Positions 1 to 20,318 of a DNA stretch of 64,000 nt are shown here, one piece after another. The notes beneath the pieces are model-generated. The model was not told the origin of the DNA, made no database searches, and worked only from the letters and a program-made list of their open reading frames with translations. Origin of the DNA: a bacterium (GTDB taxonomy: Bacteria > Hydrothermota > Tepidihabitantia > SM23-42 > JAOAFX01). The translations under genes and the position numbers were made by a program. The stretch is taken from contig DAIRCK010000015.1 of assembly GCA_036796695.1 (NCBI GenBank), positions 438-64,437 on the forward strand. Direction: 5' to 3'. Every line of letters begins with the position of its first letter. Within the stretch, counting starts at the first letter, position 1.

Positions 1-218
1 CCTTGAGTAATTTCAAAGCTGGCCTGGCGTTGGGACAACCTTTGAAATATAAAAATCTAATTGTCATATTTAACTACGATTTTTCATAACGGCTTTGCGT
101 ATGAGCGGTGACGGAGTTTAAAGTAATCGCTCGCCAAAATACAGGAGCAATAAGGCAAAGAGCAAACCTTGACACTGCCAAAAACCTGCAATTGCTTACA
201 CACTTCGTTAGGAACAGT

Positions 219-800: not shown

Positions 801-840
801 AGTGCTATATTTATTTTAATAATTAGTAGGAATAATGTTT

Positions 841-1014
841 GCGGATAAAGTAAGATACCAAAACGAAGCGTAGGCAATTTGGGTGAGGCTGTGCAAAAGC
901 CGAACCGTTTATCCGCTGTTATGTGCCCCGAGCCGATAGGCGAGAGTGCAACGTGGCAAGGAAGCCGAAGGCTTCCGCAGAGTTCGAAAACCTGCCGTAA
1001 ATTATGTTGTTGCC
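841..1014. repeat. composite structured repeat, copy 1. Module A is a hairpin GCGGATAAA..TTTATCCGCTGTTA with a GGCAATTTGGG loop core. Module B is TTCGAAAACCTGCCGTAAATT..GTTGTTGCC.
   Basis: A 9-bp stem at 841-849/908-916 encloses a loop containing ggcaatttgggtgaggc. Module B at 984-1014 is the reverse complement of 3541-3599. The palindrome ggaagccgaaggcttcc lies between the two modules. Confidence 0.5.
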
Positions 1015-1066
1015 GTAGTTTTTTCTTACTTTCAGTCATCTCATTTTCTCCGTAAGGGCGGGGACT

Positions 1067-2224: not shown

Positions 2225-3366
2225 TTTTTCACTTTTTTAAATAAAAATATATATTCGTGTTTGAAAATATAAAATCCACCAACCAGAGCCCTATATCTCC
2301 ATAATTCTTTCTGATTCATTTTCCCTTTGGTCTCTTCAAAATTTTTAACTATTATAGACTTTAGTATATACCCTCTTTTTAAAACTTCGTTCATAACATA
2401 AAATCCCAATGGAATCCATTCACCTTGCGAATACTTGTCTCCTATTACTACAGCAAAGTATCTATTTTTATCCAAAATATCATAAGTGTTATCTACAACT
2501 TTACCTAATAAATGTAAAAATTCATCAACACTTTTAGCGTTTGATAAATCTTTATTATTCTTACTAAATTTTATAATATCCCAATAAGGAGGATGCATTA
2601 TCAAAAATTGCACAGATTTAATATTTCTTTTTTCTAATTCCAGCTTAAAATTCAATTCTGTACTATCAGCATTGATAACTTCAATTCTAACATTAAATTT
2701 ATTTTCCTCGTTAGATATGTTTTTATTTGCTATGTCTACTACTTCTGGTGATAATTCAACGCCTACTCCATTTCTGCCTAATCTTTTGCATTCAATTAAA
2801 GTTGTTCCACTTCCAAGAAAAGGATCTAAAACCCATTCACCCTGTTTAGTGTATCTTCGTAAAAATTGGTTTGGAATTTGCGGTATAAAATTACCCCAGT
2901 AACCTGCATTGTGGGCTCCTGATTTGTCTCGTTTATCTAAAATCCATAAGCTTTCTGTCAGTATGTCACTATATTCTTTCCAACGGTTGAGATTTAAATC
3001 GTTTATTTTACTTGTTTTAATTTCTGTTAAACTTTTCTTTAAACGATTAATATAATATTTTGCTCTTTCAATTGTTTGTGCTTCTACTATTTGGTTTAAA
3101 TCTTCCAAAAGTACCTCTTTATTAACTTTCGCGGTGTCACCATTGTGAGAAATATTTAACAACCCAAAATTATCTTTTCTTGGATTTCTAATAATCTCAA
3201 TAATTTTATGTATTTCAAATTTTATTTTATTATTTTCTTGTAAATCTTCAATTTTAGATAAAAACTCTAAAAACATGTTTTGATTTATTATAGTTTCTTT
3301 TCCCCAATCTATTTTTTCATCAAAGCCACTATTAAAATTAAATAAGGTAATATTATTGTCTTTCAT
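2221..3366 (-). CDS. DNA methyltransferase (N6-adenine or N4-cytosine class), 381 aa
   Basis: Motif I VLDPFLGSGTT is followed by motif IV IMHPPYW. There is an N-terminal extra domain of about 150 aa. ATG at 3366. Confidence 0.8.
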   Translation of the reverse strand: MKDNNITLFNFNSGFDEKIDWGKETIINQNMFLEFLSKIEDLQENNKIKFEIHKIIEIIRNPRKDNFGLLNISHNGDTAKVNKEVLLEDLNQIVEAQTIERAKYYINRLKKSLTEIKTSKINDLNLNRWKEYSDILTESLWILDKRDKSGAHNAGYWGNFIPQIPNQFLRRYTKQGEWVLDPFLGSGTTLIECKRLGRNGVGVELSPEVVDIANKNISNEENKFNVRIEVINADSTELNFKLELEKRNIKSVQFLIMHPPYWDIIKFSKNNKDLSNAKSVDEFLHLLGKVVDNTYDILDKNRYFAVVIGDKYSQGEWIPLGFYVMNEVLKRGYILKSIIVKNFEETKGKMNQKELWRYRALVGGFYIFKHEYIFLFKKVKK

Positions 3367-3540
3367 ATTTAGCCACCATTATATAAAGTTAAGAGTTATC
3401 GTTATTATAAATCTTTTTGTTTTTAAGTCCATAAAAAGCCATCGCCCGTGAAAATAAGAAAAAAATTTTGTTTAACTTTCGTTAGATGAAAGTTGCATAG
3501 CAATTTCATTGTCTCTTTTCCTCCTATGAAGTTAAATGAA

Positions 3541-3670
3541 GGCAACAACAACATCATCATAATTTACGGCCTCCTTTCCGTAAAAGGCAGGTTTTCGAAT
3601 TGCACATAACGTCTTGCGGATAAAAGAGGTTGCCGAAGGCAATTTGGGCGAAGCCTTTTATCCGCTGTTA
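3541..3670. repeat. composite structured repeat, copy 2 (module B then module A)
   Basis: 3541-3599 is GGCAACAAC..AATTTACGGC..GGCAGGTTTTCGAA, inverted relative to 984-1014 and carrying two short insertions. 3616-3670 is a hairpin GCGGATAAAAG / CTTTTATCCGC with loop aggttgccgaaggcaatttgggcgaag, then CTGTTA. The orientation of A matches copy 1. Confidence 0.5.
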
Positions 3671-4164
3671 GGCGATGTGCTGCTTGAAGATTCGTGCTTA
3701 CCACTCAACCACTTCCTCAACACCTCTGCCTTCTCTATCCTACCCAGCTTCAGATATGCCTGATATTCATATTCTAAAGAAAGTACGGGTACTTGTATTC
3801 CCTCCAGCTCTATAACCCGTTTGTGTCGCTCCAAATCCACAGGGTTCTCCCAACTTCCATCCTCAAGCCGCTTCTGAATGTCTCCCATAATTTCTACCTT
3901 GATTCCATCAATAATCAGTTCACCAAAGTGCGAGCGGATTCTCTCTGTGGAGAAGAATTTAACCCTTTTGGTCACAAACTCGGAAAAGAGGCGATCAATC
4001 TCATAGGCTCCCTCCCGGTCAGTTTGGATGTCAATGTCATTAGATTCGACAGGCACACCTTGAAGTGCAAAACCGAGGCTGCCTGTGACTACCCAATTCA
4101 CGTTCCTGTCGTTCAGTCGAGCATATATCTTTCGAAGGATGTTAAGGTAGACTGGCTCAATCAT
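3658..4164 (-). CDS. minimal nucleotidyltransferase (Pol-beta superfamily), paralog 1 of 3
   Basis: Has WVVTGSLGFALQG..NDIDIQTD (hG[GS]..DhD). The track ORF runs to 4269 with a GTG start and would translate through palindromic DNA. An internal ATG at 4164 with RBS AGGTGA is the preferred start. The C-terminus overlaps repeat copy 2. Confidence 0.55.
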   Translation of the reverse strand: MIEPVYLNILRKIYARLNDRNVNWVVTGSLGFALQGVPVESNDIDIQTDREGAYEIDRLFSEFVTKRVKFFSTERIRSHFGELIIDGIKVEIMGDIQKRLEDGSWENPVDLERHKRVIELEGIQVPVLSLEYEYQAYLKLGRIEKAEVLRKWLSGKHESSSSTSPNSG

Positions 4165-4303
4165 TCTCTCACCTCTGGTAGCATTTCGCCTAACTCGTTC
4201 ATATCCGAACCTGGTTCGGATATCCTTCCAAAATTGGTGGTATAGACGAACTTGGTTCGGATATACCACCCTCTAACTGAACTTTTGTTTGAAATAATGT
4301 TCC

Positions 4304-5416
4304 TCATGTTTTGTCCCCCTGTTTTTGTTTTAAATCCAGATTGTCCAACGGACTGTTAAATTTACCAATCTGCTTTGTACTAACATGAGTATAAACTTCA
4401 GTGGTTTTGCTACTTTTGTGCCCAAGTATCTCCTTAATATACCTTAAATCTACACCACTCTCCAAAAGATGTGTGGCAAAACTATGGCGCAGGCTATGAA
4501 CTGTTGCCTTTTTTAAAATTTTTGCAGACTCACAGGCATTAGAAAATATCTTTTCAACAGTCCGTGTTGTTATATGCTTTTCTTTTTCTTGTCCTAAAAA
4601 TAACCACTTTCTTGGTCTATATTCCTGCCAGTATTCTCTCAACACCTCCAATGCGGTCTTTGAAAGCATCGTATACCTATCTTTCCGTCCCTTTGACCCT
4701 TTTATGTGTATCAACATCCTTTTACTATCAATATCTTCAGGTCTCAATTTTACTACCTCTCCAACTCTTAATCCAGCAGAGTATACCAGCATAAGAATTG
4801 CCTTGTGTTTGATATTATCCATCGAATCAAGAATTTTTGCAACTTCTTCCTTGCTTAAAACTACAGGAAGTTTTTTATCCTTGCGGGGTCTTTTGACTTC
4901 ATAAACAAATTTCTTTTTTAACATTGTGCCATAGTAAAACTTCAGAGCGTTAATTGCCTGATTTAAAGTAGAGGTTGATGCTTCTTTCTTTTCCGATAAA
5001 TAGACCAGATACTCTTTTATGTCATTATCAGTTATTTCTAATGGGTTTTTGCGAGTAAAATTCCGAAAATCTCTATTGAAGTAAATATAGGCTTTAACGG
5101 TCTTATAACTGTATTTTCTTGAAAGAAGTTCTCTACGGAGGTCTTCAAATTCCCCCTCACCCTTACCCTCTCCCACAAGGGGCGAGGGAAATTCTTTAGT
5201 CTGTAATGCAGGGTCTATGTAGACTTTTTCACCTTCAAAGACCTCCAAAATTTTCTCCAGCGTTCCATTAGAGTTTGGAAAACCCCAATATTTTCCTCCA
5301 GGATGCCATCTGTGCCCTTCTATTGTCCTTATTTTTTCCACAAATTGAGGATTATATGAAAAAGAAACCATTAAATTATTTTCTCTGTCTTTTAGGATTT
5401 TAATTTTCAAATACAT
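4304..5416 (-). CDS. tyrosine site-specific recombinase/integrase (XerC/D-phage integrase family), 370 aa
   Basis: C-terminal HSLRHSFATHLLESGVDLRYIKEILGHKSSKTTEVYTHV gives the R..H..R..Y catalytic tetrad. A SAM-like core-binding domain is present. The N-terminal extension of about 90 aa resembles an arm-type DNA-binding domain. Confidence 0.85.
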   Translation of the reverse strand: MYLKIKILKDRENNLMVSFSYNPQFVEKIRTIEGHRWHPGGKYWGFPNSNGTLEKILEVFEGEKVYIDPALQTKEFPSPLVGEGKGEGEFEDLRRELLSRKYSYKTVKAYIYFNRDFRNFTRKNPLEITDNDIKEYLVYLSEKKEASTSTLNQAINALKFYYGTMLKKKFVYEVKRPRKDKKLPVVLSKEEVAKILDSMDNIKHKAILMLVYSAGLRVGEVVKLRPEDIDSKRMLIHIKGSKGRKDRYTMLSKTALEVLREYWQEYRPRKWLFLGQEKEKHITTRTVEKIFSNACESAKILKKATVHSLRHSFATHLLESGVDLRYIKEILGHKSSKTTEVYTHVSTKQIGKFNSPLDNLDLKQKQGDKT

Positions 5417-5581
5417 AATTTTATTTTATACATTTTTAGTTAAAAGTCAAGGAGAATTTTATTAAATATTCCAGCACAAAAAACACCGTTTGTCAATTAA
5501 CCGAACTTTGTTTAATTCTTATTATTTATACCAATTTTGATACCTTTCTTTGATTTTGAAAGAGAACTTATCTCTGAACTG

Positions 5582-5621
5582 GGAGCACGGTGAAAATTTT
5601 TTCGCGGTTGGAAACCGCTCC
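5582..5621. other. conserved nested hairpin motif, copy 1: GGAGCAC..TCGCGGTT-GGA-AACCGCTCC
   Basis: Nearly identical to 15614-15657. Inner stem is GCGGTT/AACCGC and outer stem is GGAGC/GCTCC. Lies upstream of the integrase and downstream of the 5758-6234 gene. Confidence 0.4.
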
Positions 5622-5757
5622 TAAAGAATTATGTACAATAAAGTGCACCATTTTCGAGCGTCTAAATAAGGAAATTCTTCGTCCGCTAAACTGTGGCGGA
5701 TTCGGATTTGGAATTTGTATAAAAATTTCTTAAAGTCTAATACCTGAACATACTTAT

Positions 5758-6234
5758 TTAAATCTGTGATTTCAGGTATTTTAAATCTTCCAAATCCTTT
5801 GGCCTTTTAAGTATTTCTTTATTCTGGATTAATTCGTTCAGCCCAATATAAAAAATTTCAATGACCTGCTTTTTTACTTTTATCTTCTCAATTTTCTTAT
5901 TTCGCCATGCATCAGAAAAATTTACACCGGTGATTTTGTTCATAAGGTCAATTCTGTTTGGCGGAACACCAAACTGGATTATAATGCCTGGTTCTGCCAA
6001 TTCTTCTTTTCTTTCAATCCCTGGTATCTTTCCTTCCCAAAATTCATTTATGGCTTTAAATAAACAATCAATATTTTCAGGAGTATTCTCAAAAAAGAGA
6101 TCAATATCACCTGTCAGGCGGGCATATCCATAATGAATAACAGCCTCACCTCCGACAATCAGATACTTCACAGAGAATTTGTAAAGAAGATGAAGAAATT
6201 CTAATATATCCTTTGAGAAGTTGCTGACTTTCAT
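5758..6234 (-). CDS. minimal nucleotidyltransferase, paralog 2 (158 aa)
   Basis: Has IVGGEAVIHYGYARLTGDIDLF, the G[GS]..D.D NTase motif. The C-terminus KILKRPKDLEDLKYLK is shared with the other paralogs. Its start overlaps the stop of the upstream small ORF (ATGA). Confidence 0.6.
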   Translation of the reverse strand: MKVSNFSKDILEFLHLLYKFSVKYLIVGGEAVIHYGYARLTGDIDLFFENTPENIDCLFKAINEFWEGKIPGIERKEELAEPGIIIQFGVPPNRIDLMNKITGVNFSDAWRNKKIEKIKVKKQVIEIFYIGLNELIQNKEILKRPKDLEDLKYLKSQI

Positions 6235-6425
6235 TTTTCATTCTGAATGCGTTTTTTAGAAAAAACTCTACTTTCTCTAACATCAGGTCTCTTTCTACCA
6301 TACACCCTGATTTTAATTAGGTATGCAATCTTTTGCCTTTGCTCTGGTGTTAGCGCTCTATGTTGCATTATGTCATATTCTTCTGCGTCTTTAAAATCTT
6401 TTGCCTTATGAACAATTCTTTTCAT
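6231..6425 (-). CDS. small basic partner protein of NTase paralog 2 (64 aa)
   Basis: Translationally coupled to the NTase. Its tail IRVYGRKRPDVRESRVFSKK is homologous to the tail of the 17326-17571 partner. Confidence 0.45.
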   Translation of the reverse strand: MKRIVHKAKDFKDAEEYDIMQHRALTPEQRQKIAYLIKIRVYGRKRPDVRESRVFSKKRIQNEK

Positions 6426-6431
6426 AATTTC

Positions 6432-7976
6432 TCAAAATATCTTCTGTTCTTTGTATTCGCCGTAGACTTTTTTAAGTTCAGTGGTTATTTCACCGACTGT
6501 AGCATAAGCCTTTACACAGTCAAGAATATAAAGCATTAAGTTTTCTCCGCTCTCGGCTGCAGATTTCAAACGAGCAAGCATCTCTCTAACACGATTATTA
6601 TCACGCTCATTCAAAATCTTTTTTAGCCTTCTCAATTGTTTCTGAACAACCTTTGGATTCACCTTCAAAATTTTTTGTTTACTCTCTTCTCCACTTTTGA
6701 ATTTATTTACACCAAGGATACTAATCTCACCACTCTCTACCTTCTTCTGATACTCATACGCACTCTTGTGTATCTCTTTTTGGAAATAACCCTGTTCAAT
6801 TGCCTTTATTGCACCACCCATATTCTCAATCCTTTCAAGGTACTCATTTACTTCGTTTTCAATTTTATTGGTCATCGCTTCAATCGCATAAGAGCCTCCA
6901 AAGGGGTCAATTATCTCAGGAATACCTGTCTCATAACCAATAACCTGCTGGGTTCTTAAAGCAAGTTTTACTGATTCTTCAGTTGGCAGACCAAGTGCCT
7001 CATCATAAGAATTTGTATGGAGGGATTGGGTTCCACCAAAGACTGCAGCAAGTGCCTGATATGCAACCCTGATTGCATTATTCAATGGCTCCTGGGCAGT
7101 TAAAGTGCATCCTGCGGTCTGGGTATGGAATCTCAACATCCAGGACTTAGGATTCTTTGCATTAAATTTATCTTTCATTATCCTTGCCCAGAGTCTCCTT
7201 GCAGAACGGAACTTTGCAACCTCCTCAAGGAAGTTGTTATGGCAATTAAAGAAGAAGGAAAGCCTCGGTGCAAAAGAATCTACATCCATCCCCCTTTTAA
7301 TTGCCTCTGAAACATAGGTGATTGCATTAGCAAATGTGAAGGCAATTTCCTGAACCGCAGTTGCGCCTGCCTCACGAATATGATAACCGCTGATTGAGAT
7401 TGTATTCCATTTTGGTAGATTTTTACTACAGTATTCAATCAAATCTATCGTCAATTTCATTGATGGTTCAGGTGGAAAAATATATGTTCCACGCGCAATA
7501 TACTCTTTTAAAATATCATTCTGGACCGTGCCTTCGAGGACTGCCGGAGACACACTCTGTTTTTCTGCAACTGCAACATACATACATAGGATTATTGAGG
7601 CAGTTGCATTTATCGTCATTGAAGTGCTCACTTTATCGAGTGGTATACCATTGAATAGAATCTCCATATCAGCAAGTGTATCAATTGCCACACCGGTCTT
7701 ACCCACTTCACCTAAAGCCATTGGGTCTGATGAATCATAGCCCATCTGGGTTGGTAGGTCAAATGCTACAGAGAGACCAGTCTGACCATGCTGAAGTAGA
7801 TACTTGTATCGTTTATTGGATTCTTCAGCAGTTCCATAACCTGCATACTGGCGCATCGTCCATAATCTTCCCTTATACATCGTGGAATAAATCCCACGGG
7901 TATATGGGTATTCGCCGGGATTACCTAAATCCCGGTTGTAATCAAAATTAATTAAGTCATCAGGTTTGTATAACAT
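6432..7976 (-). CDS. methylmalonyl-CoA mutase-type large subunit, catalytic (beta/alpha)8 domain only (514 aa)
   Basis: Strong acyl-CoA mutase similarity ([25 protein letters not shown]). Carries the MCM-specific Tyr (RQYAG) and Arg ([12 protein letters not shown]). No fused B12 domain. ATG at 7976. Confidence 0.85.
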
Positions 7977-8121
7977 AATTTCCTATTAAATTCTAAATTC
8001 TAATCTCTAAATCCTAAACAAATTCTAATTTTCAATGTTACAAATCCAAAATAATCTTTAGGACATTAGAATTTGTAAGAAAATTCTTCAGCATTTTATG
8101 CAATATGTGACGCAGAATTTA

Positions 8122-8613
8122 TTACTCTATTACTATCAGTGTATCTTTACTATTAACGGTCTGTCCTTTTTGCACCATTATCTTTTTCACAATACCGTCT
8201 CTTGGTGACTTGAATTCATTCTGCATCTTCATCGCCTCAATTATCAAAAGCCCCTGGCCTTTTTTGACGCTGTCGCCTTCTTTTACTTCAACCTCTATGA
8301 CCAGACCCGGCATAGGTGCAGTGACGATCGCCTCTTTCTTATGTGTTACTTCTGTTCCAGATTTTAATACCTTTGCAACCTGCTCATCAATAACTTCAAA
8401 ATTGTAGAGTTCACCATTTATATTAAACGTGTCATCAGAATCAAGGAATATCTGATATGGTTTATTATCAATTATCAGTGTGATTTTATCTTTATCAGAT
8501 TGTGCAACTTCAACCCGGAATTCCCTTCCATCAAGCAGGACTTTAAAAATATTTCCTGCTTTTGCTATATCAGCTTTGAATTCTTTATCTTCAATTTTTA
8601 TGATATAGGACAT
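8122..8613 (-). CDS. biotin carboxyl carrier / biotinyl-domain protein (163 aa)
   Basis: C-terminal biotinyl domain has the EAMKM biotinylation motif. Confidence 0.8.
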   Translation of the reverse strand: MSYIIKIEDKEFKADIAKAGNIFKVLLDGREFRVEVAQSDKDKITLIIDNKPYQIFLDSDDTFNINGELYNFEVIDEQVAKVLKSGTEVTHKKEAIVTAPMPGLVIEVEVKEGDSVKKGQGLLIIEAMKMQNEFKSPRDGIVKKIMVQKGQTVNSKDTLIVIE

Positions 8614-8743
8614 AGTTAAACACCTAACCTGGATTATTCATACTGTTTTTGGCTAAATTCGCTCAAATGCAGTGCCAGAGCGGGTTTGCGGTATTTTTTG
8701 ATAAAAAATAAACTCCACACATTGTTTTTTCTTTGCCATTGCG

Positions 8744-8840
8744 AGCCCTCGCCCATTATCAATGGGCGGGGCGAAACAATCCGACTTCGTCGTATCAGAG
8801 ATTACCACGCCCACGCCTTCGGCGTATGCTCGCAATGACA
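8744..8840. other. GC-rich structured intergenic element between accC and the BCCP gene
   Basis: A 10-bp outer inverted repeat (CATTGCGAGC / GCTCGCAATG) encloses hairpins CGCCCATTATCAATGGGCG and ACGCCTTCGGCGT. Local GC content is far above that of the surroundings. Confidence 0.35.
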
Positions 8841-8963
8841 TTGAGTATGAATAATGCAGACTAAATACTAAAATGCCTAGCCGAGTAAACTCGGCCACTA
8901 CATTAAATGAACCATCATTCGTCCGAATAAATTTGGACGCTACATTCATAGTAGAGATTATTA

Positions 8964-8992
8964 TGTGCGATAAATCGCACCGCTACATTTTT
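8964..8992. repeat. ATAAAT-loop hairpin motif, copy 1: TGTGCGATAAATCGCACCGCTACATTTTT
   Basis: Aligns with copies at 12081, 25851 and 26986. The palindromic arms covary around a fixed ATAAAT centre. Abuts the accC stop codon. Confidence 0.5.
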
Positions 8993-10485
8993 CTAAGCAT
9001 TGATTGACGGGCAGCGAGTTTCCAGGGACTTATACCTGCAGATGTAGACTTCACTTTATAAATCGTTGCTTTTTGTTCCTGGAGCAATTTTTTAACCATA
9101 GCCGCAATTGCTGCGGTCTGGTAATTCTCTTTTTTGTATTCAATCTTACCAAGTATTCTATCTATAAATGTCGTATCATAATCACCGGCAATGAATTGCG
9201 GATTTTCCATAACAAGTAAATGGAACGGAATTGAGGTTTTAATACCTCTTATCGTATACTCCTTCAATGCCCTTTTCATCCGTTTAATTGCTTCTTCTCT
9301 TGTCGGTGCCCAGACCAATAATTTGGCAATCAATGGGTCGTAGTATATTGGCACTTCAAAACCTTCGTATATTCCACTATCCAAACGCACACCTGGGCCA
9401 CCGGGTTCAATCAATTCTATTACCTTTCCAGTTGATGGCGCAAAATTGTTTTCCGGATCTTCAGCAGTGATACGACATTCAATTGCCGAACCATTTATTT
9501 TTATATCTCCCTTTCTTAATGACAACCTCTCACCTGCAGCAATCTTAAACTGCTCTTTCACAATATCAATTCCGGTGACAAGTTCAGTGACCGGATGTTC
9601 AACCTGCAAACGGGTATTCATCTCAAGAAAATAAAAGTTTCTATCTATATCAACCATAAATTCCACAGTACCGGCATTACTATAGCCTGATGCCTTTACT
9701 GCCTTTATTGCAGCCTCACCCATCTTTTCTCTCAATTCAGGTATCATAATTGCTGAGGGTGATTCCTCTATCAATTTCTGATGCCGACGCTGGATTGAAC
9801 ACTCCCTTTCGCAAAGATGCACAACATTACCGTAATTATCTGCAAGAACCTGGAATTCTATGTGCCGGGGCTGTTCAAGGAACTTTTCTATAAATATCGT
9901 GGGATTTCCAAATGCTGATTGTGCCTCACCAGTCGCCTGTTTTATCGCAGTTGACAAATCTTTTATATCGCGCACAACCCTCATCCCTTTTCCACCACCA
10001 CCACCTGCCGCTTTAATCAGAACCGGTAGACCTATCTTCTCAATGATTTTTAATGCCTCTGCCTCGTCCATTATTGCGCCTTCACTTCCTGGAATCACCG
10101 GTACACCTGCCTTTGTCATCGTAACCTTTGATGCAATCTTATCACCGAGTAATTCAATTGCCCTTGAATTGGGACCAATAAAGACAACACCTGAATCCTC
10201 ACACGCCTTTGCAAATTCAGTATTTTCTGCAAGGAAACCATATCCTGGGTGGATTGCCTCAGCACCACTCTTCTTCGCAATATCAATTATCTTTTCTATC
10301 CTTAAATAACTCTCACTTGCAGGTGAAGGTCCGAGATAATACACCTCATCTGCATATTTAGTATGCAGGGCATTTCGGTCTGCATCTGAATAGACCGTGA
10401 CCGACTTTATGCCCATCTCTCTGCAGGCACGCAGAACACGAACTGCAATCTCTCCCCTGTTGGCTACTAAGATTTTCTTGAACAT
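8983..10485 (-). CDS. accC: biotin carboxylase subunit of an acyl-CoA/pyruvate carboxylase
   Basis: N-terminus MFKKILVANRGEIAVRVLRA is classic AccC. ATP-grasp fold. The track begins at a TTG at 10509; the ATG at 10485 is preferred. Confidence 0.85.
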   Translation of the reverse strand: MFKKILVANRGEIAVRVLRACREMGIKSVTVYSDADRNALHTKYADEVYYLGPSPASESYLRIEKIIDIAKKSGAEAIHPGYGFLAENTEFAKACEDSGVVFIGPNSRAIELLGDKIASKVTMTKAGVPVIPGSEGAIMDEAEALKIIEKIGLPVLIKAAGGGGGKGMRVVRDIKDLSTAIKQATGEAQSAFGNPTIFIEKFLEQPRHIEFQVLADNYGNVVHLCERECSIQRRHQKLIEESPSAIMIPELREKMGEAAIKAVKASGYSNAGTVEFMVDIDRNFYFLEMNTRLQVEHPVTELVTGIDIVKEQFKIAAGERLSLRKGDIKINGSAIECRITAEDPENNFAPSTGKVIELIEPGGPGVRLDSGIYEGFEVPIYYDPLIAKLLVWAPTREEAIKRMKRALKEYTIRGIKTSIPFHLLVMENPQFIAGDYDTTFIDRILGKIEYKKENYQTAAIAAMVKKLLQEQKATIYKVKSTSAGISPWKLAARQSMLRKM

Positions 10486-10515
10486 AGTTTTTAAAAGTTT
10501 AACGTTCAACCATCT

Positions 10516-12063
10516 TTACAATGGTATATTTCCGTGTTTTCGTGGAGGATTTGTATCACGCTTGTTTTCAATCATCTCAAACGCCTCAATTACCCTTGGC
10601 CTTGTCTCGTGCGGTCTAATGACAGCATCAATATAGCCTTTTGACGCAGTCACAAATGGATTGGCAAACTTGTCTGTATATTCATCTATCAGTTTCTTTT
10701 CCAACGCCTTTGGGTCTTTTGCCTCTTTGAGTTCTTTGCGGTATAGAATTTTCACTGCGCCATCAGGCCCCATCACTGCAATCTCAGCACTGGGCCAGGC
10801 AAAATTTATATCCGCGCGAGTATGTTTTGAACTCATAACACAATAGGCACCACCATAAGCCTTTCGAGTAATAACTGTAACACGGGGAACAGTCGCTTCA
10901 CAGAAGGCATATAAAAGTTTTGCCCCGTTCTTTATCACACCACCCCATTCCTGGGCAGTGCCAGGTAAAAATCCTGGAACGTCAACAAAGGTCAAAATTG
11001 GAATATTGAAACAGTCACAAAAACGAACAAATCTTGCACCTTTCATTGCTGAATCACAATCCAGAACACCAGCAAGAACCACAGGCTGATTTGCAACAAT
11101 ACCAATTGACCTGCCGTTTAATCGGGCAAAACCAACAATTAAATTCTTTGCATAATGTTTATGAACCTCAAGAAACTCACCATTATCAACCACCCTTTTT
11201 ATTACCTCGGACATATCATAAGGTTTTGTCGGACTATCCGGAATTATCTCATCAAGTTCTTTGTCCTGACGATTTATATCATCTGTGCAATCAATAGCAG
11301 GTGGGTCCTCAAGGTTATTCTGTGGAATATATGATAATAATTTTTTAATAAGCTCAATACACTCAACTTCGTTTTCTACAGCAAAATGGGCAACACCGGA
11401 TTTTTCATTATGAACCATTGCACCACCGAGTTGCTCAAATGTCACATCCTCATGGGTCGCAGCCTTTACTACATCAGGGCCAGTCAAAAACATATATGAG
11501 CCCTGAACCATTATCACAAAATCAGTCATCGCTGGTGAATAGACTGCACCACCAGCACAGGGCCCCATAATTGCTGAAATCTGTGGCACAACACCTGAAG
11601 ACAGAACATTGCGCAAAAAGACATCGGTATAACCGGCAAGACTATCTACCCCTTCCTGAATGCGTGCCCCACCAGAATCTTTAAGACCAATGATTGGACA
11701 ACCCATCTTCATCGATAAGTCCTGAAGTTTACAAATTTTCTCTGCATACGCTTTGGACAAAGAACCACCAAAGACTGTAAAATCTTCGGCAAAAACACAA
11801 ACCGGTCTGCCATTTATTCTACCATAACCTGTCACCACACCATCTCCAAGAATCTTTTGTTTATTCATATCAAAATCTGTGCAGCGGTGGGTAACAAACA
11901 TATCGGTCTCACGAAATGTGCCTTTATCAAGTAGCAAATCTATGCGCTCACGGGCAGTGAGTCTTCCTTTGTCATGCTGTGCCTTAATCCTTGCCTCTCC
12001 CCCACCAAGTAATGCCTGTTTTTCAAGCTCTTCGAGATGTTTCAATTTGTCTTTTATCTTCAT
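10516..12063 (-). CDS. pccB: acyl-CoA carboxylase carboxyltransferase subunit (PccB/MmdA, 12S family)
   Basis: Carboxyltransferase domain similarity throughout. The track start is a TTG at 12087. An ATG at 12063 preceded by GGGAGG is the likely start. Confidence 0.85.
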
Positions 12064-12080
12064 GAATCCTCCCAAATTAT

Positions 12081-12110
12081 TGTGCAATAAATTGCACCGC
12101 TACAAATTTT
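12081..12110. repeat. ATAAAT-loop hairpin motif, copy 2: TGTGCAATAAATTGCACCGCTACAAATTTT
   Basis: Lies in the 45-nt gap between the MBL gene stop and the pccB RBS. The arms covary with the other copies (TGCAAT/ATTGCA). Confidence 0.5.
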
Positions 12111-12990
12111 AATCCGAAATTGGTTGTAATACCGGCTTCCCATCTTTTTCTTTAATGAAGGCGAAGATCACCTTCGGGTCGTGTTCAAAAATCAATAACC
12201 AGTTTTCTGCAATCGCCTGTTTCAGAAATTTCTTTTTCAATTCTATCAATTCCAGAGGATAAAGGTCAAAACTTGTATGATAGGGTATTCTTATATGGGC
12301 TGAAGTGGGCATAAGATCACCCCAGAATATCGCCTTTTTACCTTCAGATTCAATCATTATTGATTGGTGTCCCTTTGTATGACTAATTGTATTTATAACT
12401 TTTATTCCAGGAATAATTTCGTATTCACCTTCTACCAGTATCAATTGTCCGGAGTTTTCAAGGGGAATGAAATTTTCTTTTAAATAGCTCGCCCTGGTTC
12501 GCTCATTAGGATGGGTTGCGTCATACCATTCCTGCTTTTGAATTATGTATTTTGCACGAGGAAAGGTGGAAATAATCTCATTGTTTCCAGACATAGGTCT
12601 ACCACTACTATCTGTGGCATTAAACTCTGGCTTATAGATTGTATTCCAGCCACAATGATCAAAATGGAGATGGGTATTTATGACAAAATCTATATCTTCA
12701 AGTTTTAATCCAAGATTTTTTAACCCAGTCTCAAGATCCGGTGGTTGTTTAACCGAATATATCTCACGAAATTTTTCATCAAGTTTATTTCCAATTCCAG
12801 TATCCAGGAGTATATTTGCATTCGGGGCCTTTATCAAAAGGCAGTTCAGGGGTATTTCAACGCGATTTAAATTATCAGGTTCAACAATTTTAGACCATAA
12901 CAATTTGGGCACAACCCCAAACATCGTTCCGCCATCAAGATAGAATGAACCATCTGATATTGGTATCAAATCAAATTTGCCGAGTTTCAA
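12109..12990 (-). CDS. MBL-fold metallo-hydrolase (293 aa)
   Basis: Has the HLHFDHCGWN zinc-binding motif. Apparent TTG start with an AGGAG RBS. Confidence 0.75.
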   Translation of the reverse strand: MKLGKFDLIPISDGSFYLDGGTMFGVVPKLLWSKIVEPDNLNRVEIPLNCLLIKAPNANILLDTGIGNKLDEKFREIYSVKQPPDLETGLKNLGLKLEDIDFVINTHLHFDHCGWNTIYKPEFNATDSSGRPMSGNNEIISTFPRAKYIIQKQEWYDATHPNERTRASYLKENFIPLENSGQLILVEGEYEIIPGIKVINTISHTKGHQSIMIESEGKKAIFWGDLMPTSAHIRIPYHTSFDLYPLELIELKKKFLKQAIAENWLLIFEHDPKVIFAFIKEKDGKPVLQPISD

Positions 12991-12993
12991 ATC

Positions 12994-13209
12994 CTACTCC
13001 TGCTTTTCTGTTTTATTCAATTTTTTCTCAATCGGATTTAGGAATTGTTCAATGGTAATATAAGGATTTACCTTCATCAATTTCTCAAGTATTTTTTTCC
13101 GTTCTTCATCAGTTTTTGCATTTAAATATTTTATTCGTAAAATATTTGTTTTTTCCCTTCTTTTTGCTCTTTTATGTAATTCAGATTGTCTGATTTGTCC
13201 TTTTCTCAT
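12994..13209 (-). CDS. small basic hypothetical protein (71 aa)
   Basis: ATG at 13209 with a strong RBS (GGAGGTG). Lys/Arg-rich. Function unknown. Confidence 0.5.
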   Translation of the reverse strand: MRKGQIRQSELHKRAKRREKTNILRIKYLNAKTDEERKKILEKLMKVNPYITIEQFLNPIEKKLNKTEKQE

Positions 13210-13321
13210 TTACACCTCCTCATTAAAAAGTTAACGGATAATGGTTTATGGGCATTGCAGCCCGTGAAAAAGAATTTTTAATTATCATTTGCTTTGAAAA
13301 GTCTATATTTCCGTATACCGT

Positions 13322-13762
13322 TCATTTTCGCTTCTTTGGTTTCTTCTGGTTTGCCTTTGTAATTTTAACTTCCTTTTTCACATTATTGTTTATCCAGTCA
13401 ACAATTTCACTCGTTGGGGTTCCTGGACCAAAAAGTTTCTTCACACCCATCTTTTCAAGTTTTTTCATATCATCCAGCGGAATTATTCCGCCACCAATGA
13501 CAGGGATATCCGCTTTCTTCTCTTTAAGTAGTTTCAATATCTTCGGGAATATTGTCATATGCGCACCAGAAAGAATAGAAAGTCCGATGACATCCACATC
13601 TTCCTGTATTGCGGCTTCCACGATTGCCTCACAGGTTTGATGAAGTCCTGTATAAATAACTTCCATTCCTGCATCACGCAGGGCTGCTGCAACAACCTTT
13701 GCCCCACGGTCATGGCCATCAAGACCGGGTTTACCGATTAAGACGCGAATTTTTTTATCCAT
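13322..13762 (-). CDS. acyl-CoA mutase B12-binding small subunit (146 aa)
   Basis: Has [12 protein letters not shown], the DxHxxG cobalamin-binding motif. Rossmann-like B12 domain. RBS GGAGGT. Confidence 0.85.
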
Positions 13763-13783
13763 ACTACCTCCTAAAAAAGCAGG

Positions 13784-13836
13784 AATCGCAGTATCATTAC
13801 ATTCGCAGTATCGTGCCTATCGGCACTCGCAGTATC
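13784..13836. repeat. three direct repeats of TCGCAGTATC between the B12-subunit gene and the icmA-like gene
   Basis: Copies at about 13786, 13803 and 13827. Related inverted units TTCTGCGAA lie at about 13859 and 13893. Confidence 0.4.
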
Positions 13837-13938
13837 GCATTCGGTTCATAAAACCGTTTTCTGCGAATCTGCCGACGGTGATGATACTGGGTCTTCTGCG
13901 AACACGCCAAACGGTGTGGCGGGCGATCCTGCACTTTC

Positions 13939-15579
13939 TTAAAAAATGATTGGTTCATGATACACACCGAATTCTTCTTTCAAAGTAGAACACATCTCTC
14001 CAAGTGTAGCATATGCGCGGACACACTCAAGGATTCTGGGCATCAAGTTTTCACCATTTGCTGCTGCCTTACGCAGGTCTTTCAATTTTTCTTTTACTTT
14101 TGCGTTATTTCTTTCTTTCTTAACCTTCTTCAAACTCTTTATCTGTTCAATCTCAACTTCAGGCGGGATTTTTAAAATCTCAATATCTGGTTTTTCTTCT
14201 TCTTCAAAGATATTTATCCCCACATGGTATTTTTCTCTTTTTTCAATTGCCTGCTGATATTCATAGGCACTGCGAGCAATCTCTTTCTGGAAGAATCCTT
14301 TTTCAATTGCTGGCAATACACCGCCCAGTGCATTTATTTTATCAAAATACTCATAAGCCTTTTTCTCCATTTCATTTGTAAGGTATTCAACATAGTATGA
14401 ACCACCGAGTGGGTCAATTACATTTGCTACACCTGTTTCATAGGCAATGAGTTGTTGAGTTCGTAGAGCAATCTTCACTGCCTTTTCAGTAGGTAAAGCA
14501 TATGTCTCATCCATTGAATTCGTATGTAACGATTGAGTTCCACCGAGGACTGCGGCAAGTGCCTGGAATGCAGTTCGCACGATATTATTTTCTGGTTGCT
14601 GGGCAGTCAATGTGCATCCTGCAGTCTGGGTATGGAATCGCATAAGCCAGGAGCGAGGGTCCTGGGCATTATATTTTTCGCGCATCAATTTTGCCCATAT
14701 CCTTCGTGCCGCACGATATTTAGCAATCTCTTCAAAAAAATCAAGATGGGAATTAAAGAAAAAAGAAAGACGAGGTGCGAATTTATCAACCGGTAATCCC
14801 GCCTTTATTCCATATTCAACATAGGTAAATCCATTGGCAAGGGTAAAGGCGAGTTCCTGGATTGCAGTTGCACCGGCTTCACGAATATGGTATCCGGAGA
14901 TTGAAATTGTATTCCACTTTGGCACATTGTCTGAGCAAAAAGCAAGAATATCAGTTATTATTCTCATTGAGGGTCCAGGTGGATAAATCCAGGTTTTCTG
15001 TGCCTGGTATTCCTTTAACATATCATTCTGGATTGTGCCGGTAAGCATATGCGAAGGAACACCCTGCTTTTCACCAACTACAATATACATAGCAAGTAAC
15101 ATTGCTGCAGGTGGATTGATGGTCATTGAGGTAGAGATTTTATCAAGGGGAATTCCATCAAATATTATTTCCATATCCCTCAATGTATCAACTGCAACCC
15201 CGCATTTACCAACTTCACCGTGGGAGAATGGATCATCAGAATCTCTACCGTAAAGTGTAGGAAAATCAAAGGCAACAGAAAGACCTGTCTGTCCGTGCTT
15301 TAATAAATATTTATATCTCTTATTCGTATCCTTTGGTGTGCCCATTCCAGAAAACTGGCGCATTGTCCAGAGCCTGCCCCGATACATTGTAGTTTGAACA
15401 CCTCTGGTAAATGGGTATTCACCTGGATATCCGAGATCGCGTTCATAAACAAAATCAGGTATATCATCAGGGGTATATAGTGGGTTTAGTGGAATACCAG
15501 AAATTGTTGTAAATTTGTGGTCTCGCTCATTGCAAGTTTTATACTTTTGTTCCCATTGCTCTTTTTGCTTCTTAGACAT
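13939..15579 (-). CDS. icmA: isobutyryl-CoA-mutase-type acyl-CoA mutase large subunit (catalytic domain only)
   Basis: Paralog of 6432-7976. It has Phe (RQFSG) and Gln ([12 protein letters not shown]) where MCM has Tyr and Arg; this is the known ICM-versus-MCM signature. ATG at 15579 with RBS AAGGAGGT. The track start is a TTG at 15594. Confidence 0.8.
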
Positions 15580-15613
15580 TGCACCTCCTTTCAATCTTTT
15601 CAGAAACTGTAGA

Positions 15614-15657
15614 GGAGCACCCAGTCCTTAATAGTATCGCGGTTAGGAAACCGCTCC
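15614..15657. other. conserved nested hairpin motif, copy 2, in the icmA leader
   Basis: GGAGCACCCAGTCC..TCGCGGTTAGGAAACCGCTCC. Shares both stems with 5582-5621. Lies between meaB and icmA. Confidence 0.4.
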
Positions 15658-15731
15658 AACTTTAGTTTTGCTACATAAAATCCATGGATAATCACTAATC
15701 AGAACACAGATTTCCGCAGAAAAATTTAATA

Positions 15732-16667
15732 TCATTTTTTATTAATTAAACTTCTTAATATTTTCTTTGCTACTTTATATGGGCTCAATTTTCTTTCAAA
15801 AATTCTTTCTACAAATCTATCAAGTTCTTTGTCGTCAATTACTGATTCGTGCAAATGTCTTCTTATTTCTGATTCTATAAACTCATGTATTTGATTTAAA
15901 ATGCGCAATTTTCTAATTTTCTTTAATTCGCCGCTATTTTTGAGATGATCTTCGTGCATCTTTAATGCCTTAATAAATTCATCAATGCCTGATTCATCTG
16001 TAGCAATTGTCTTCAAAATGGGTACACGCCAGGAAGTCTTAGGTCTTAAATCAAAAGCGAATTTCAATTCCATTAAAAGTGCATCACTCCCTTCGCGGTC
16101 TGCCTTATTTACCACTACGATATCTGCGATCTCCAACAATCCTGCCTTCATTGTCTGTATAGAATCACCTGATTCTGGAACAAGCACCACAACTTTTGTA
16201 TCACAGACCTGGGCAATATCAAGTTCTATTTGACCAACTCCAACGGTTTCGATGAGAATATAATCCATCCCTGCGGCATCAAGAACCAGAGCCACATCCT
16301 TTGTCTTCTTTGAAAGACCACCGAGGCTTCCCCTTGTTGCCATACTGCGGATAAAGACATTCTTCTGGAGTGCCAAATCGCCCATTCTTATTCTATCACC
16401 AAGCAATGCACCACCAGAAAATGGTGATGTTGGGTCAACGGCAATAATACCAATTTTGTGATTTTCTTTAAGCAATTTTTTTGCAATTGCATTGACCAGA
16501 GTTGACTTCCCCGCACCAGGAGGACCGGTAATACCAATTTGATATGCCCTGCCTGTATAAGGGGAAATTTTATCAAGGATATCTACTCCTGTATCATTTT
16601 CAACCAAACTGATTATCTTTGCAATACTGATTTTATCGCCTTTTAGAAGATTTCTTATCAAATCCAT
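15732..16667 (-). CDS. meaB: MeaB/ArgK-type G-protein chaperone of acyl-CoA mutase
   Basis: P-loop GITGPPGAGKST and VNKADREG (NKxD). Confidence 0.9.
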   Translation of the reverse strand: MDLIRNLLKGDKISIAKIISLVENDTGVDILDKISPYTGRAYQIGITGPPGAGKSTLVNAIAKKLLKENHKIGIIAVDPTSPFSGGALLGDRIRMGDLALQKNVFIRSMATRGSLGGLSKKTKDVALVLDAAGMDYILIETVGVGQIELDIAQVCDTKVVVLVPESGDSIQTMKAGLLEIADIVVVNKADREGSDALLMELKFAFDLRPKTSWRVPILKTIATDESGIDEFIKALKMHEDHLKNSGELKKIRKLRILNQIHEFIESEIRRHLHESVIDDKELDRFVERIFERKLSPYKVAKKILRSLINKK

Positions 16668-16829
16668 TTAAAACACCAATTTATTTTTAATATCTTCGGG
16701 AATTAATGCAATCGATCTCTTGTCTGCGTCAATAAAAGGAATCTTCTTTTCCTTAAGTATCCTCGTAAATTCCTGTAATAAATCTTTCTTCTCTTTTGCC
16801 ACTCTTTTAACAAATTCTTTTTTAGTCAT
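16668..16829 (-). CDS. possible small ORF (53 aa) translationally abutting meaB
   Basis: Reads MTKKEFVKRVAKEKKDLLQEFTRILKEKKIPFIDADKRSIALIPEDIKNKLVF. Its TAA stop is immediately followed by the meaB ATG. No clear RBS. Confidence 0.3.
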   Translation of the reverse strand: MTKKEFVKRVAKEKKDLLQEFTRILKEKKIPFIDADKRSIALIPEDIKNKLVF

Positions 16830-16855
16830 AATTTTGAAATGCAGAATGTAATTGC

Positions 16856-17350
16856 CTATTGGCCAAAATTTCTTTTCTTTAACTTATTTAACCAATATAC
16901 ATCTGCTCTATCTCTTTCTCGGAATGAGTTTTTTTTTGTGGCTATGAGTTTATTAATACTTAATACTGGAATTTTAATGTTACCTATCTCCTTAATTATC
17001 ATATCTTTGCTTGCCTCTTCATAATCTAATTGCCATAATTTTGAGATAAGGTCTATTTCAATTTCACCCGCAATTTTTACAGTCTGGTATTTTTTAATGT
17101 CACTCAATCTCAATTTTTTTATTTCAGGATTTATTGACTTTAAGGAATCTTTTATTTTTTTGGCATTCTCAATAGAAGGTTCAACAATAAAATCATAATC
17201 AATGGTTAACCTTTCTTGACCAGAAATTTCTTCAATTCCATGTAGTTTGCAGGCGTAGGCACCACAAACAACATATTTTACTTCATATTCATTAAACCTT
17301 TGGCAAATTTCTACGAATTGTTTATCTATCTTTTTATTAGTCCATCCCAT
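16856..17350 (-). CDS. minimal nucleotidyltransferase, paralog 3 (164 aa)
   Basis: Has VVCGAYACKLHGIEE..TIDYDFIV, a G[GS]..D.D-like motif. The C-terminus RERDRADVYWLNKLKK is shared with the other paralogs. Confidence 0.6.
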   Translation of the reverse strand: MGWTNKKIDKQFVEICQRFNEYEVKYVVCGAYACKLHGIEEISGQERLTIDYDFIVEPSIENAKKIKDSLKSINPEIKKLRLSDIKKYQTVKIAGEIEIDLISKLWQLDYEEASKDMIIKEIGNIKIPVLSINKLIATKKNSFRERDRADVYWLNKLKKRNFGQ

Positions 17351-17571
17351 GAGAACATTACCCTTTTAAATTCATCTTCATTCTTCTCTTTTATAGTCTT
17401 GAACCGATATATTCCTGAAGGATATGCCTTTACTCTCAGACGAATCCACTCAAATCGGTCAAAATCTTCTACCTTTTCACCTTTTTCTAATCGGTTTATC
17501 AGCTCCCATCCGCTCTGCTCCTCAATTGTTTTGAACCTAATAATACGGTCTTTCTTCTTTTTGAATTTCAT
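17326..17571 (-). CDS. small partner protein of NTase paralog 3 (about 81 aa from the ATG at 17571)
   Basis: Overlaps the NTase start. Its LRVKAYPSGIYRFKTIKEK tail is homologous to the 6231-6425 protein. Its ATG shares one base with the GNAT stop codon (TGATG). Confidence 0.45.
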   Translation of the reverse strand: MKFKKKKDRIIRFKTIEEQSGWELINRLEKGEKVEDFDRFEWIRLRVKAYPSGIYRFKTIKEKNEDEFKRVMFSWDGLIKR

Positions 17572-18125
17572 CACCAAACTTCTTTGGTCTTCCTTTTCTT
17601 TATAAAATCTTTCTTTAACAAACCAAACATTAGCACATCAACAAAATTTCTTCCATCAAAATATGCCTTGCGTCTTACGCCTTCTTTTTTAAAACCCAGC
17701 GATTTTAACAAATAGTAACTTACTTTATTAAACTCATAGACTTCTGCATCAACACGATGAGCGCCTTTTTTAAACAGGAAATTTAAGAAACATATCAGCG
17801 CTTCCTTTGCATAACCTTTGTCCCGCTCTTCGCCTAAAGCAAATCTCAACCAAGCAAGACGGTGTGCGTAGCCAAACCAATTGATACGAATATAACCAAT
17901 TGGCTTGTCTGTTTTTTTAATAACAATTATGCTATATAAATCGGATTTTGATTTCAGTGCCCTCTTAATATCATCTCTCTGATTTCTTAATGATATCTTC
18001 ATATCTGGGCTGAGTGCCATCTTCTTTACAAGCGGGTCTTTTTTCCATTTTGTAATAATCTTCGATTCTGATATTTTAACTTCTCTTATATAGATTCTAT
18101 TGTTTTTAAAAATAATATTTGACAT
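17571..18125 (-). CDS. GNAT family N-acetyltransferase (184 aa)
   Basis: Acetyl-CoA binding core RINWFGYAHRLAWLRFALGEE..KGYAKEAL. Confidence 0.75.
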   Translation of the reverse strand: MSNIIFKNNRIYIREVKISESKIITKWKKDPLVKKMALSPDMKISLRNQRDDIKRALKSKSDLYSIIVIKKTDKPIGYIRINWFGYAHRLAWLRFALGEERDKGYAKEALICFLNFLFKKGAHRVDAEVYEFNKVSYYLLKSLGFKKEGVRRKAYFDGRNFVDVLMFGLLKKDFIKKRKTKEVW

Positions 18126-18156
18126 TAGTGTCTATAAATTGAATTATGCTAATTTA

Positions 18157-20318
<2,162 letters not shown>

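Follow-up and report, generated by a model that had tools for sequence, protein, structure and literature searches.

The closest characterised system to the gene pairs described here, and their best structural and sequence analogue, is the toxin-antitoxin (TA) system MenAT1 of Mycobacterium tuberculosis (Rv0078B/Rv0078A), for which the structures 8AN4, 8AN5 and 8RR5 are available in the PDB (PMC10435456, PMC11375011). Its toxin, MenT1, is a nucleotidyltransferase (NTase) of tRNA 3' ends, and is neutralised by MenA1, a helical protein of 68 amino acids (aa) that has no DNA-binding domain, is encoded by the upstream gene and binds across two toxin protomers (PMC10435456). The active-site residues listed for MenT1 are T39, D41, K137 and D152, and only 21 homologues of MenA1 were reported (PMC10435456). 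MenA1 brings about auto-phosphorylation at T39 in MenT1, for which T39, D41 and K137 are required, while the D152A variant largely keeps it (PMC11375011). The gene pairs compared here with this system lie in a 64,000-nucleotide (nt) stretch of contig DAIRCK010000015.1 (positions 438 to 64,437), from a bacterium of the Hydrothermota; this whole stretch is referred to as the window.

The original prediction had placed three paralogous modules in the window, each built on a minimal NTase. Two such modules were found and not three, so that the observation was partly confirmed and its interpretation partly supported. Module B consists of a partner gene (6231-6425) and an NTase gene (5758-6234), and module C of a partner gene (17326-17571) and an NTase gene (16856-17350); NTase A (3658-4164) was treated apart from both. 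The three NTases and the two small partner open reading frames (ORFs) are all encoded on the minus strand:

5758-6234, minus strand: NTase B, 158 aa, a DUF6036 nucleotidyltransferase and putative MenT-like toxin
6231-6425, minus strand: partner B, 64 aa, basic, a putative antitoxin
16856-17350, minus strand: NTase C, 164 aa, a divergent DUF6036/MenT-like nucleotidyltransferase and putative toxin
17326-17571, minus strand: partner C, 81 aa (83 aa if the TTG at 17577 is used), basic, a putative antitoxin
3658-4164, minus strand: NTase A, 168 aa, a TM1012/PF10706 (ANT(2'')-like) nucleotidyltransferase, read as a solitary cassette gene

The coordinates of the three NTase ORFs and their core motifs were as first described. 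Each has a pol-beta-type core, with an hG[GSA] motif and a DxD motif ~13-20 residues further on (GS..DID in A, GG..DID in B and GA..DYD in C). The small overlapping ORFs ahead of B and C were also confirmed: the stop of partner B and the start of NTase B share a 4-nt overlap (ATGA), and partner C overlaps the start of NTase C by 25 nt.

The layout of modules B and C resembles that of MenAT1, with a small gene (64 and 81 aa, compared with 68 aa) upstream of a short NTase gene (158 and 164 aa, compared with ~190 aa), and with a partner that is predicted to be helical and has no DNA-binding, HEPN or AbiEi domain. MenAT1 is a described precedent (PMC10435456), which had been overlooked when the pair was said to fit no described layout. 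The two modules differ from MenAT1 in that their partners have no sequence similarity to MenA1, in that their NTases belong to DUF6036 and not to DUF1814/AbiEii and are ~30 aa shorter, and in that the DUF6036 pair family is far larger and spans many phyla. With the AbiE and MenAT3 systems (type IV/VII), in which an AbiEi or COG5340 antitoxin is paired with an AbiEii/DUF1814 toxin, they share the NTase superfamily, the logic of a four-motif active site and a mobile two-gene operon with the antitoxin gene (putative in B and C) placed first. However, the antitoxins of AbiE and MenAT3 are winged helix-turn-helix proteins of 200-300 aa and their toxins have ~250-300 aa, whereas the partners described here have 56-81 aa and no such domain. 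The type VII HEPN/MNT (HepT/MntA) systems also combine a minimal NTase (~100-170 aa) with a second, overlapping gene in one operon, but their NTase acts as the antitoxin, comes from the first gene and is accompanied by a HEPN RNase with an Rx4-6H motif, whereas here the small gene comes first and carries no HEPN motif. We lean towards the interpretation that modules B and C are MenAT1-like TA pairs.

Conservation and distribution of modules B and C

NTases B and C share 27% identity (BLASTP, E 1e-7), and their families matched over the full length in a profile-profile comparison (hhalign, probability 98.3%, E 1.4e-14). The paralogy claimed for all three NTases is thus correct for B and C and incorrect for NTase A, which is a member of another family (PF10706). 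NTase B passed the threshold of DUF6036 (PF19502; 34.3 bits, gathering cutoff 23.6) and also matched DUF2204. NTase C alone was below the PF19502 threshold, and one of its homologues is annotated with PF19502. The NTase B family is large and tightly conserved, with >1300 homologous clusters at ~60% identity, and the NTase C family is small (30 clusters). Literature searches on DUF6036, PF19502 and DUF2204 returned nothing relevant.

The active site is retained in both families. Motifs I and II are present in NTase B (G28-G29 and D43/D45) and in NTase C (G30-A31 and D51/D53); the motif I glycine and the first aspartate are invariant in both family alignments, and the second aspartate is invariant in B (D45) and conserved in at least 90% of C (D53). 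The residues invariant in the NTase B family are G28, R39, T41, D43, D45, D96, K139, R144, D147 and D150. An R-x-T-x-D-x-D loop is kept in both families, with an invariant threonine (T41 in B, T49 in C) two residues before the first catalytic aspartate. S78 of MenT3 is the counterpart of the phospho-acceptor T39 of MenT1. In the alignment of the family C profile with MenT1 (8an4), which is a weak sequence link (E 0.019), RFT39RD41VD fell on RLTxDYD, K137 on K139 and D149/D152 on D147/D150, so that equivalents of T39, D41, K137 and D149/D152 are conserved. Foldseek searches with the AlphaFold2 (AF2) model of NTase B (predicted local distance difference test score, pLDDT, 87) matched LnuA, MenT1 in the MenAT1 structure 8an5 (template modelling score, TM, 0.65), TM1012 (TM ~0.6) and ANT(2'')-Ia. 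NTases B and C appear to be minimal nucleotidyltransferases of the DUF6036 family with a partial membership of the MenT/AbiEii superfamily: their motifs and fold agree with it, and the Pfam threshold for DUF1814 was not reached.

The two partners are basic, with isoelectric points of 10.3 (B) and 9.9 (C). For module B, 80 genome loci were compared from many phyla, including WOR-3, Desulfobacterota, Ignavibacteria, Acidobacteriota, Verrucomicrobiota, Spirochaetota, Patescibacteria and others. One of these loci had no upstream sequence, and a homologue of partner B (~56 aa) was detected with the partner hidden Markov model (HMM) directly upstream of the NTase in all of the remainder (79/79). The exact 4-nt overlap was present at 58 of the 80 B-type junctions, and the partner and the NTase are translationally coupled. 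The consensus of partner B is M-R-V-V-H-K-A-K-N-F-x-E-A-E-E-W-D-I-x-Q-x3-M-T-P-E-E-R-Q-x2-A-x2-L-K-x-R-V-Y-G-x4-D-V-R, with R3, A14, I19, Q21, R30, L37, R40, D48 and R50 invariant or nearly so. Partner C (73-95 aa) was found upstream of the NTase in 12 of 12 metagenome loci, and an exhaustive HMMER search among 1.8 billion proteins recovered only 8 representative clusters of it. An IYRFKT-EE motif occurs twice in partner C, and its AF2 model is helical (pLDDT 78), with no PDB fold match at E < 3.

Neither partner matched a family in Pfam, NCBIfam, PADLOC or PHROGs, and family scans of 30 partner B homologues and of plasmid-borne partners gave nothing above noise. The earlier statement that the partners are neither HEPN nor AbiEi proteins was borne out. 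No HEPN family of Pfam was matched and no Rx4-6H motif is present, as partner C has no histidine and partner B has histidines only at positions 6 and 22, with the wrong spacing to arginine; at 64 and 81 aa, the partners matched no AbiEi model. The best PDB match of partner B was the N-terminal helix of kanamycin NTase (E 0.011), which was treated as a chance helical similarity.

The tails of the two partners had been proposed to be homologous. Direct BLASTP comparison of partners B and C gave nothing significant (E 2.5), and an extended alignment brings the tails (IRVYG... and LRVKAYP...) into approximate register, with no statistical weight. The detectable signal is N-terminal instead: the two profiles matched over 19 columns (KRIVHKAKDFKDAEEYDI and KDRIIRFKTIEEQSGWELI; hhalign, probability 26%, P 7e-4), with a score of 22.1 that was higher than that of all 200 column-shuffled controls (mean 9.4, maximum 15.3). 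Weak reciprocal HMM matches between the two partner families were also strongly enriched. Partners B and C are likely to be related through this N-terminal motif of ~20 aa, a weak but real similarity.

Apart from the NTase and partner B, no flanking ORF family was present in more than 7 of the 80 loci. As the flanks are unrelated, the pair is a conserved, self-contained unit, and modules B and C appear to be two diverged copies of one such two-gene family. The distribution of the NTase is patchy. In four close relatives of the source genome (L004-L007), the methylmalonyl-CoA mutase gene is likewise followed by an intact partner B, with 92% identity, and NTase B is absent. Homology to these relatives ends just after a common ATGAAA and resumes at the following element:

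5596-5650, minus strand: conserved intergenic element, single-copy, ~55 nt, downstream of module B, with the hairpin GCGGTT-TCC-AACCGC (6-bp stem) at its end

This element (GGTGCACTTTATTG.ACATAAT.CT.TAGG.GCGGTTTCCAACCGCGAAAAAAT), between module B and the integrase gene, marks the right edge of the insertion or deletion of NTase B. No NTase remnant was found in the L004-L007 loci, and in a further relative (L003) both the NTase and the C-terminal end of the partner, beyond approximately residue 39, are gone. None of the loci has an NTase that lacks a partner. That orphan partners are kept and orphan NTases never are is as expected if the partner is an antitoxin. The reading of the original prediction as a two-gene organisation of the TA type is accordingly retained for modules B and C, which are conserved, coupled, found in varied contexts and patchily distributed, and is abandoned for NTase A, a lone cassette gene.

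Related DUF6036 NTases were also found on plasmids, which points to mobility of the family. In Geminocystis the NTase gene lies between hsdS and hsdR and beside VapC, in Fibrella it adjoins AbiEi/AbiEii, and in Acidisarcina it lies between IS6 copies and near a RES toxin gene. A small ORF directly upstream of the plasmid NTase is annotated in Geminocystis and Fibrella, and was read from unannotated DNA in Acidisarcina. An SF-E....YW...P.ERL motif is present in the plasmid partners of Geminocystis pGM02 (L104, 1862-2044) and Acidisarcina (L100, 2350-2550). The Geminocystis ORF is mislabelled as 'toxin secretion, membrane fusion protein', and the Acidisarcina partner either has no annotation or has been merged into an NTase gene call with an extended N-terminus. 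Since distant DUF6036 NTases also have small partners, the partner family is broader than the 79 loci and systematically mis-annotated.

Proposed function of the modules and alternative explanations

For modules B and C we infer toxicity, a target and a mode of neutralisation as follows. The NTase, encoded by the downstream gene, would be a growth-arresting toxin, and its likeliest action would be the addition of nucleotides to the 3' ends of tRNA, as for the MenT toxins. The small basic helical protein encoded upstream would be the antitoxin. By analogy with MenA1, it may bind across the active site of the NTase through its conserved N-terminal strand-helix motif, and a further effect might be to make the invariant threonine two residues before the first catalytic aspartate undergo auto-phosphorylation.

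Several results speak against a TA function of this type. NTase C scored 19.4 bits against AbiEii (PF08843), under the cutoff of 22.5, and NTase B had no PF08843 (AbiEii/DUF1814) match in the Pfam scan. The sequence link to MenT1 is weak, and in structure NTase B matches LnuA, an enzyme of lincosamide resistance, just as well as MenT1. An identity of ~60% across phyla is unusually high for a toxin. On the side of the partners, profile and fold searches detected no resemblance to known antitoxins, MenA1 included, and when the PDB was searched with the partner B profile the MenAT1 entry was not recovered even at E <= 10. The modules matched none of the PADLOC models, and NTase B had no match in phage genomes. 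The position of the genes is also atypical of an autonomously regulated TA system, as both modules are parts of same-strand operons and have hardly any intergenic DNA ahead of them; the start of partner B is 6 nt past the stop of a mutase gene, and partner C abuts a GNAT gene.

Some of these results would be accounted for if the modules were not TA systems at all, the NTase being an enzyme that modifies small molecules or antibiotics (LnuA-like or ANT(2'')-like) or repairs RNA, and the partner its regulatory or specificity subunit. Such an enzyme is suggested by the top Foldseek match to LnuA and the further match to ANT(2'')-Ia, by the strong conservation of the NTase family, by the place of the genes within metabolic operons in the window and by the lack of a PADLOC match. 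To our knowledge, however, the resistance NTases described so far act alone, with no obligate overlapping partner gene. The MenT-type signature (R-x-T-x-D-x-D, K and DxxD) is kept in B and C, the flanks are unrelated across 80 genomes, the presence of the NTase varies among close relatives, and the plasmid relatives lie beside VapBC, AbiE and restriction-modification genes and insertion sequence (IS) elements, all of which make an enzyme with a subunit a fairly unlikely explanation. Minimal NTases serve as antitoxins in HEPN/MNT systems, and it was also considered that the roles might be reversed, as in type VII HepT/MntA, with the NTase as an antitoxin that nucleotidylates a small toxic partner; the small size, basic character and high conservation of the partners would agree with this. 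We regard a reversal as improbable. The NTase gene comes first in MntA/HepT, whereas the small gene comes first here at 79 of 79 and 12 of 12 loci, and the partners have neither a HEPN motif nor an invariant tyrosine, serine or threonine as acceptor. A toxin could not be maintained without its antitoxin, yet the intact partner persists by itself in L004-L007, so that the partner is unlikely to be the toxin.

The remaining explanation is that of the original prediction, in which all three NTases belong to paralogous modules of one novel TA or abortive-infection family and the partner of NTase A has been lost or fused. The minimal fold class is indeed common to the three, the structural matches of NTase B include TM1012 (TM ~0.6), and NTase A gave a weak match to the NTase C HMM (E 0.005). 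Against this, NTase A belongs to PF10706, is ~80% identical to the stand-alone protein TM1012, and does not have the T-x-D and K...DxxD spacing of B and C. The 48-aa ORF ahead of it lies on palindromes and is without homologues or a family, no small gene is annotated upstream of the TM1012 homologue on a Natronorubrum plasmid, and attC-like sites bound NTase A as a single-gene cassette. This explanation is very improbable, and for NTase A it is largely refuted.

With the alternatives weighed, modules B and C are on balance best described as a MenAT-type NTase TA variant with a novel antitoxin family. The DUF6036 NTase and its ~56-aa partner may possibly constitute a very widespread, unrecognised TA family. 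If the modules are TA pairs, they would represent a large branch of NTase toxins that crosses phyla; as far as we know, such toxins have until now been known only from the MenT/AbiEii systems studied in mycobacteria and streptococci. Their antitoxins would then form a new family, one without an entry in Pfam, NCBIfam or PADLOC that annotators overlook or misname. The invariant R-x-T-x-D-x-D loop would also make antitoxin-induced auto-phosphorylation testable, as a general control of NTase toxins, in an enzyme of 158 aa.

NTase A and the integron-like cassette array

NTase A was assigned to PF10706 with an E value of 8e-33 (114 bits, Pfam cutoff 21), and is ~80% identical over 155 aa (E ~1e-77) to Thermotoga maritima TM1012, which we take to be a structural-genomics protein with no assigned function (PDB 2EWR, 2FCL and 4HX0). 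No BLASTP similarity between NTases A and B was detected, and that between A and C was marginal (BLASTP E 1e-4; C-family HMM E 0.005); NTase A has the fold subclass of B and C and is not a member of their family. The original prediction had itself named a match to an antibiotic nucleotidyltransferase as counting against the grouping, and NTase A gave such a match, to the aminoglycoside-2''-adenylyltransferase family PF10706/TM1012. This result corrects the over-grouping of the three NTases. The suggestion of a fused N-terminus was also not sustained, as TM1012 aligns from the methionine at 4164.

The guanine-cytosine (GC) content of NTase A is 46% and that of its flanks 27-36%; with its upstream region (3658-4303), NTase A has 42-46% GC compared with ~30-38% in the genome region. 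The ~80% identity to TM1012 of Thermotoga maritima suggests a recent transfer between very distant lineages. NTase A appears to be a horizontally acquired gene of the TM1012/ANT(2'') family without a credible partner, and it had no match in viral contigs. The TM1012 homologue on the Natronorubrum plasmid, as noted, has no annotated small gene upstream. Like the aminoglycoside resistance gene for ANT(2'')-Ia (aadB), NTase A belongs to PF10706 and lies in a cassette bounded by attC-type sites; unlike for ANT(2'')-Ia, aminoglycoside modification is not attributed to TM1012, and the element that hosts NTase A is not a canonical integron.

The features around NTase A are as follows:

4304-5416, minus strand: Xer/IntI-type tyrosine recombinase that has an additional N-terminal domain of 90 aa and no IntI-specific insertion
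4180-4270, no strand: palindromes (4201-4223 and 4236-4270) and the 5' boundary of cassette 1, GTTAGGCGAAATGCT (4194-4180, minus strand)
4161-4307, minus strand: 48-aa ORF between the integrase gene and NTase A, over the attI-like palindromic region
3606-3681, minus strand: attC-like site 1, an inverse-core-like GCCTAAC, an imperfect hairpin and then G|TTATGT
1067-3366, minus strand: cassette 2, an N6/N4 DNA methylase gene (2221-3366) and a PD-(D/E)xK-like nuclease gene (1067-2224), forming a restriction-modification pair
835-924, minus strand: attC-like site 2, closing the restriction-modification cassette, where ACATAAC is the complement of the cassette 5' end GTTATGT

On its own strand, NTase A is bounded upstream by GTTAGGCGAAATGCT and downstream by AGCACATCGCCTAAC, an imperfect hairpin and G|TTATGT (3681-3606). 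The GTTAGGC at the 5' end of this cassette is the exact complement of the GCCTAAC at its 3' end; we take these two sequences to be the classical core and inverse-core sequences of integrons. When the junction of cassette 1 was circularised, an imperfect hairpin of ~85 nt was predicted, with -22.5 kcal/mol for the top strand and -28.3 kcal/mol for the bottom strand (z -4.9). From the boundary G|TTATGT it was predicted that the next cassette should end with ACATAAC and a related hairpin, and attC-like site 2 was then found at 924-835. It aligns with site 1 and with both sites of the relative L004. Short-pattern searches (at most 3 mismatches) had missed the diverged attC-like sites, and site 2 was located through its predicted inverse-core; a simple scan for RYYYAAC...GTTRRRY pairs gave chance-level matches only. 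The methylase of cassette 2 matched PF01555 (E 2e-23), the NucS_C/YhcG_C matches were weak, and the GC content of the cassette is 27-29%.

In L004 (5370-6560), the orthologous integrase gene is followed by a different gene, for a 275-aa membrane protein, in a cassette with the same element at its end and with GTTATAC/GTATAAC as its boundaries. Core and inverse-core were thus complementary in three of three cassettes (GCCTAAC/GTTAGGC for NTase A, ACATAAC/GTTATGT for the restriction-modification pair and GTATAAC/GTTATAC for L004), for which we estimated by hand a chance probability of ~(1/256)^3 over four variable positions. The z scores of the hairpins were between -4 and -8, with the exception of attC-like site 2 (z -1.8). 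A third, more degenerate attC-like site at ~215-75 does not obey the complementarity rule. NTase A is best seen, from these boundaries, as the first cassette in an array that resembles an integron, lies downstream of the integrase gene and has the same orientation as that gene.

The original prediction had correctly noted that the DNA upstream of NTase A is palindromic; the palindromes are a perfect one at 4201-4223 (11+1+11) and one with 16-nt arms at 4236-4270. It had proposed that they replace the partner gene. They belong instead to the recombination-site region, and are best read as the DNA between the integrase gene and the first cassette junction, comparable to attI. The possibility that the 48-aa ORF encodes a partner of NTase A was dismissed, as this ORF has no family or homologues, overlaps the palindromes at 4201-4270 and was called by one of three annotation sources; it is probably not a gene.

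The integrase is closest to integron integrases, with 36% identity to IntI1. It scored 234 bits with NF040815 (cutoff 220), 217 with TIGR02249 (cutoff 265) and 160 with NF011946 (cutoff 435). In the alignment to IntI1 it lacks 31+10 aa of the IntI I2 domain, including the ALER motif, and its extra 90-aa N-terminal domain bears a RWHPGGKYWGFP motif. The I2 domain defines integron integrases and is thought to be necessary for the recombination of folded attC sites. A canonical integron was therefore rejected, since the integrase is without the IntI-specific domain and under the IntI HMM cutoffs.

Like those of chromosomal integrons, the cassettes described here end in imperfect hairpins (80-110 nt), their inverse-core complements their own 5' end in all three cases, as expected for a crossover at G|TT, different cargo lies behind orthologous integrase genes in two relatives, and the cargo (an NTase and a restriction-modification pair) is typical of cassettes. 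Unlike in chromosomal integrons, the integrase lacks I2 and ALER and has an extra N-terminal domain, the cassettes have the same orientation as the integrase gene, and the spacing of the outer (R) and inner (L) repeat boxes differs from that of a canonical attC site. Tentatively, NTase A and the restriction-modification pair might be the cassettes of an integron-like platform whose adjacent recombinase has no I2 domain. Were this so, the platform could represent an alternative solution to cassette recombination or an ancestral-like state of it, a suggestion that we make with equal reserve. An integron-like array in an uncultivated lineage, with a recombinase that has no I2 domain, bears on the evolution of cassette recombination, and is more unusual than the TA family, which is of moderate interest. 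Judging from the closest NTase B locus, this lineage is probably candidate division WOR-3. The closest full-length homologue of the integrase (40% identity) is encoded on a Chryseobacterium plasmid, where one cargo gene (VOC family protein) and then GCCTAAC follow; no clear hairpin pair was seen at this locus.

Genes and elements next to the modules

The intergenic element at 5596-5650 was found in the window, in L001 and in the relatives L003-L007, in the presence or absence of NTase B and of the integrase island. No Rfam match was obtained in positions 1-20000 of the window, which include this element. It may be an attachment site of the island or a terminator.

NTase C is followed downstream, after 26 nt, by a 53-aa ORF (16668-16829) that adjoins the start of the MeaB gene. 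This ORF matched no family, and its position is not conserved in other module C loci. Module C itself is located between the GNAT gene and the MeaB gene. Modules B and C bracket a block of methylmalonyl-CoA pathway genes (6432-16667), which contains two mutase genes and the genes for a B12-binding subunit, MeaB, a carboxyltransferase, a biotin carboxylase and a biotin carrier. This bracketing may be a coincidence or may reflect stabilisation of the region.

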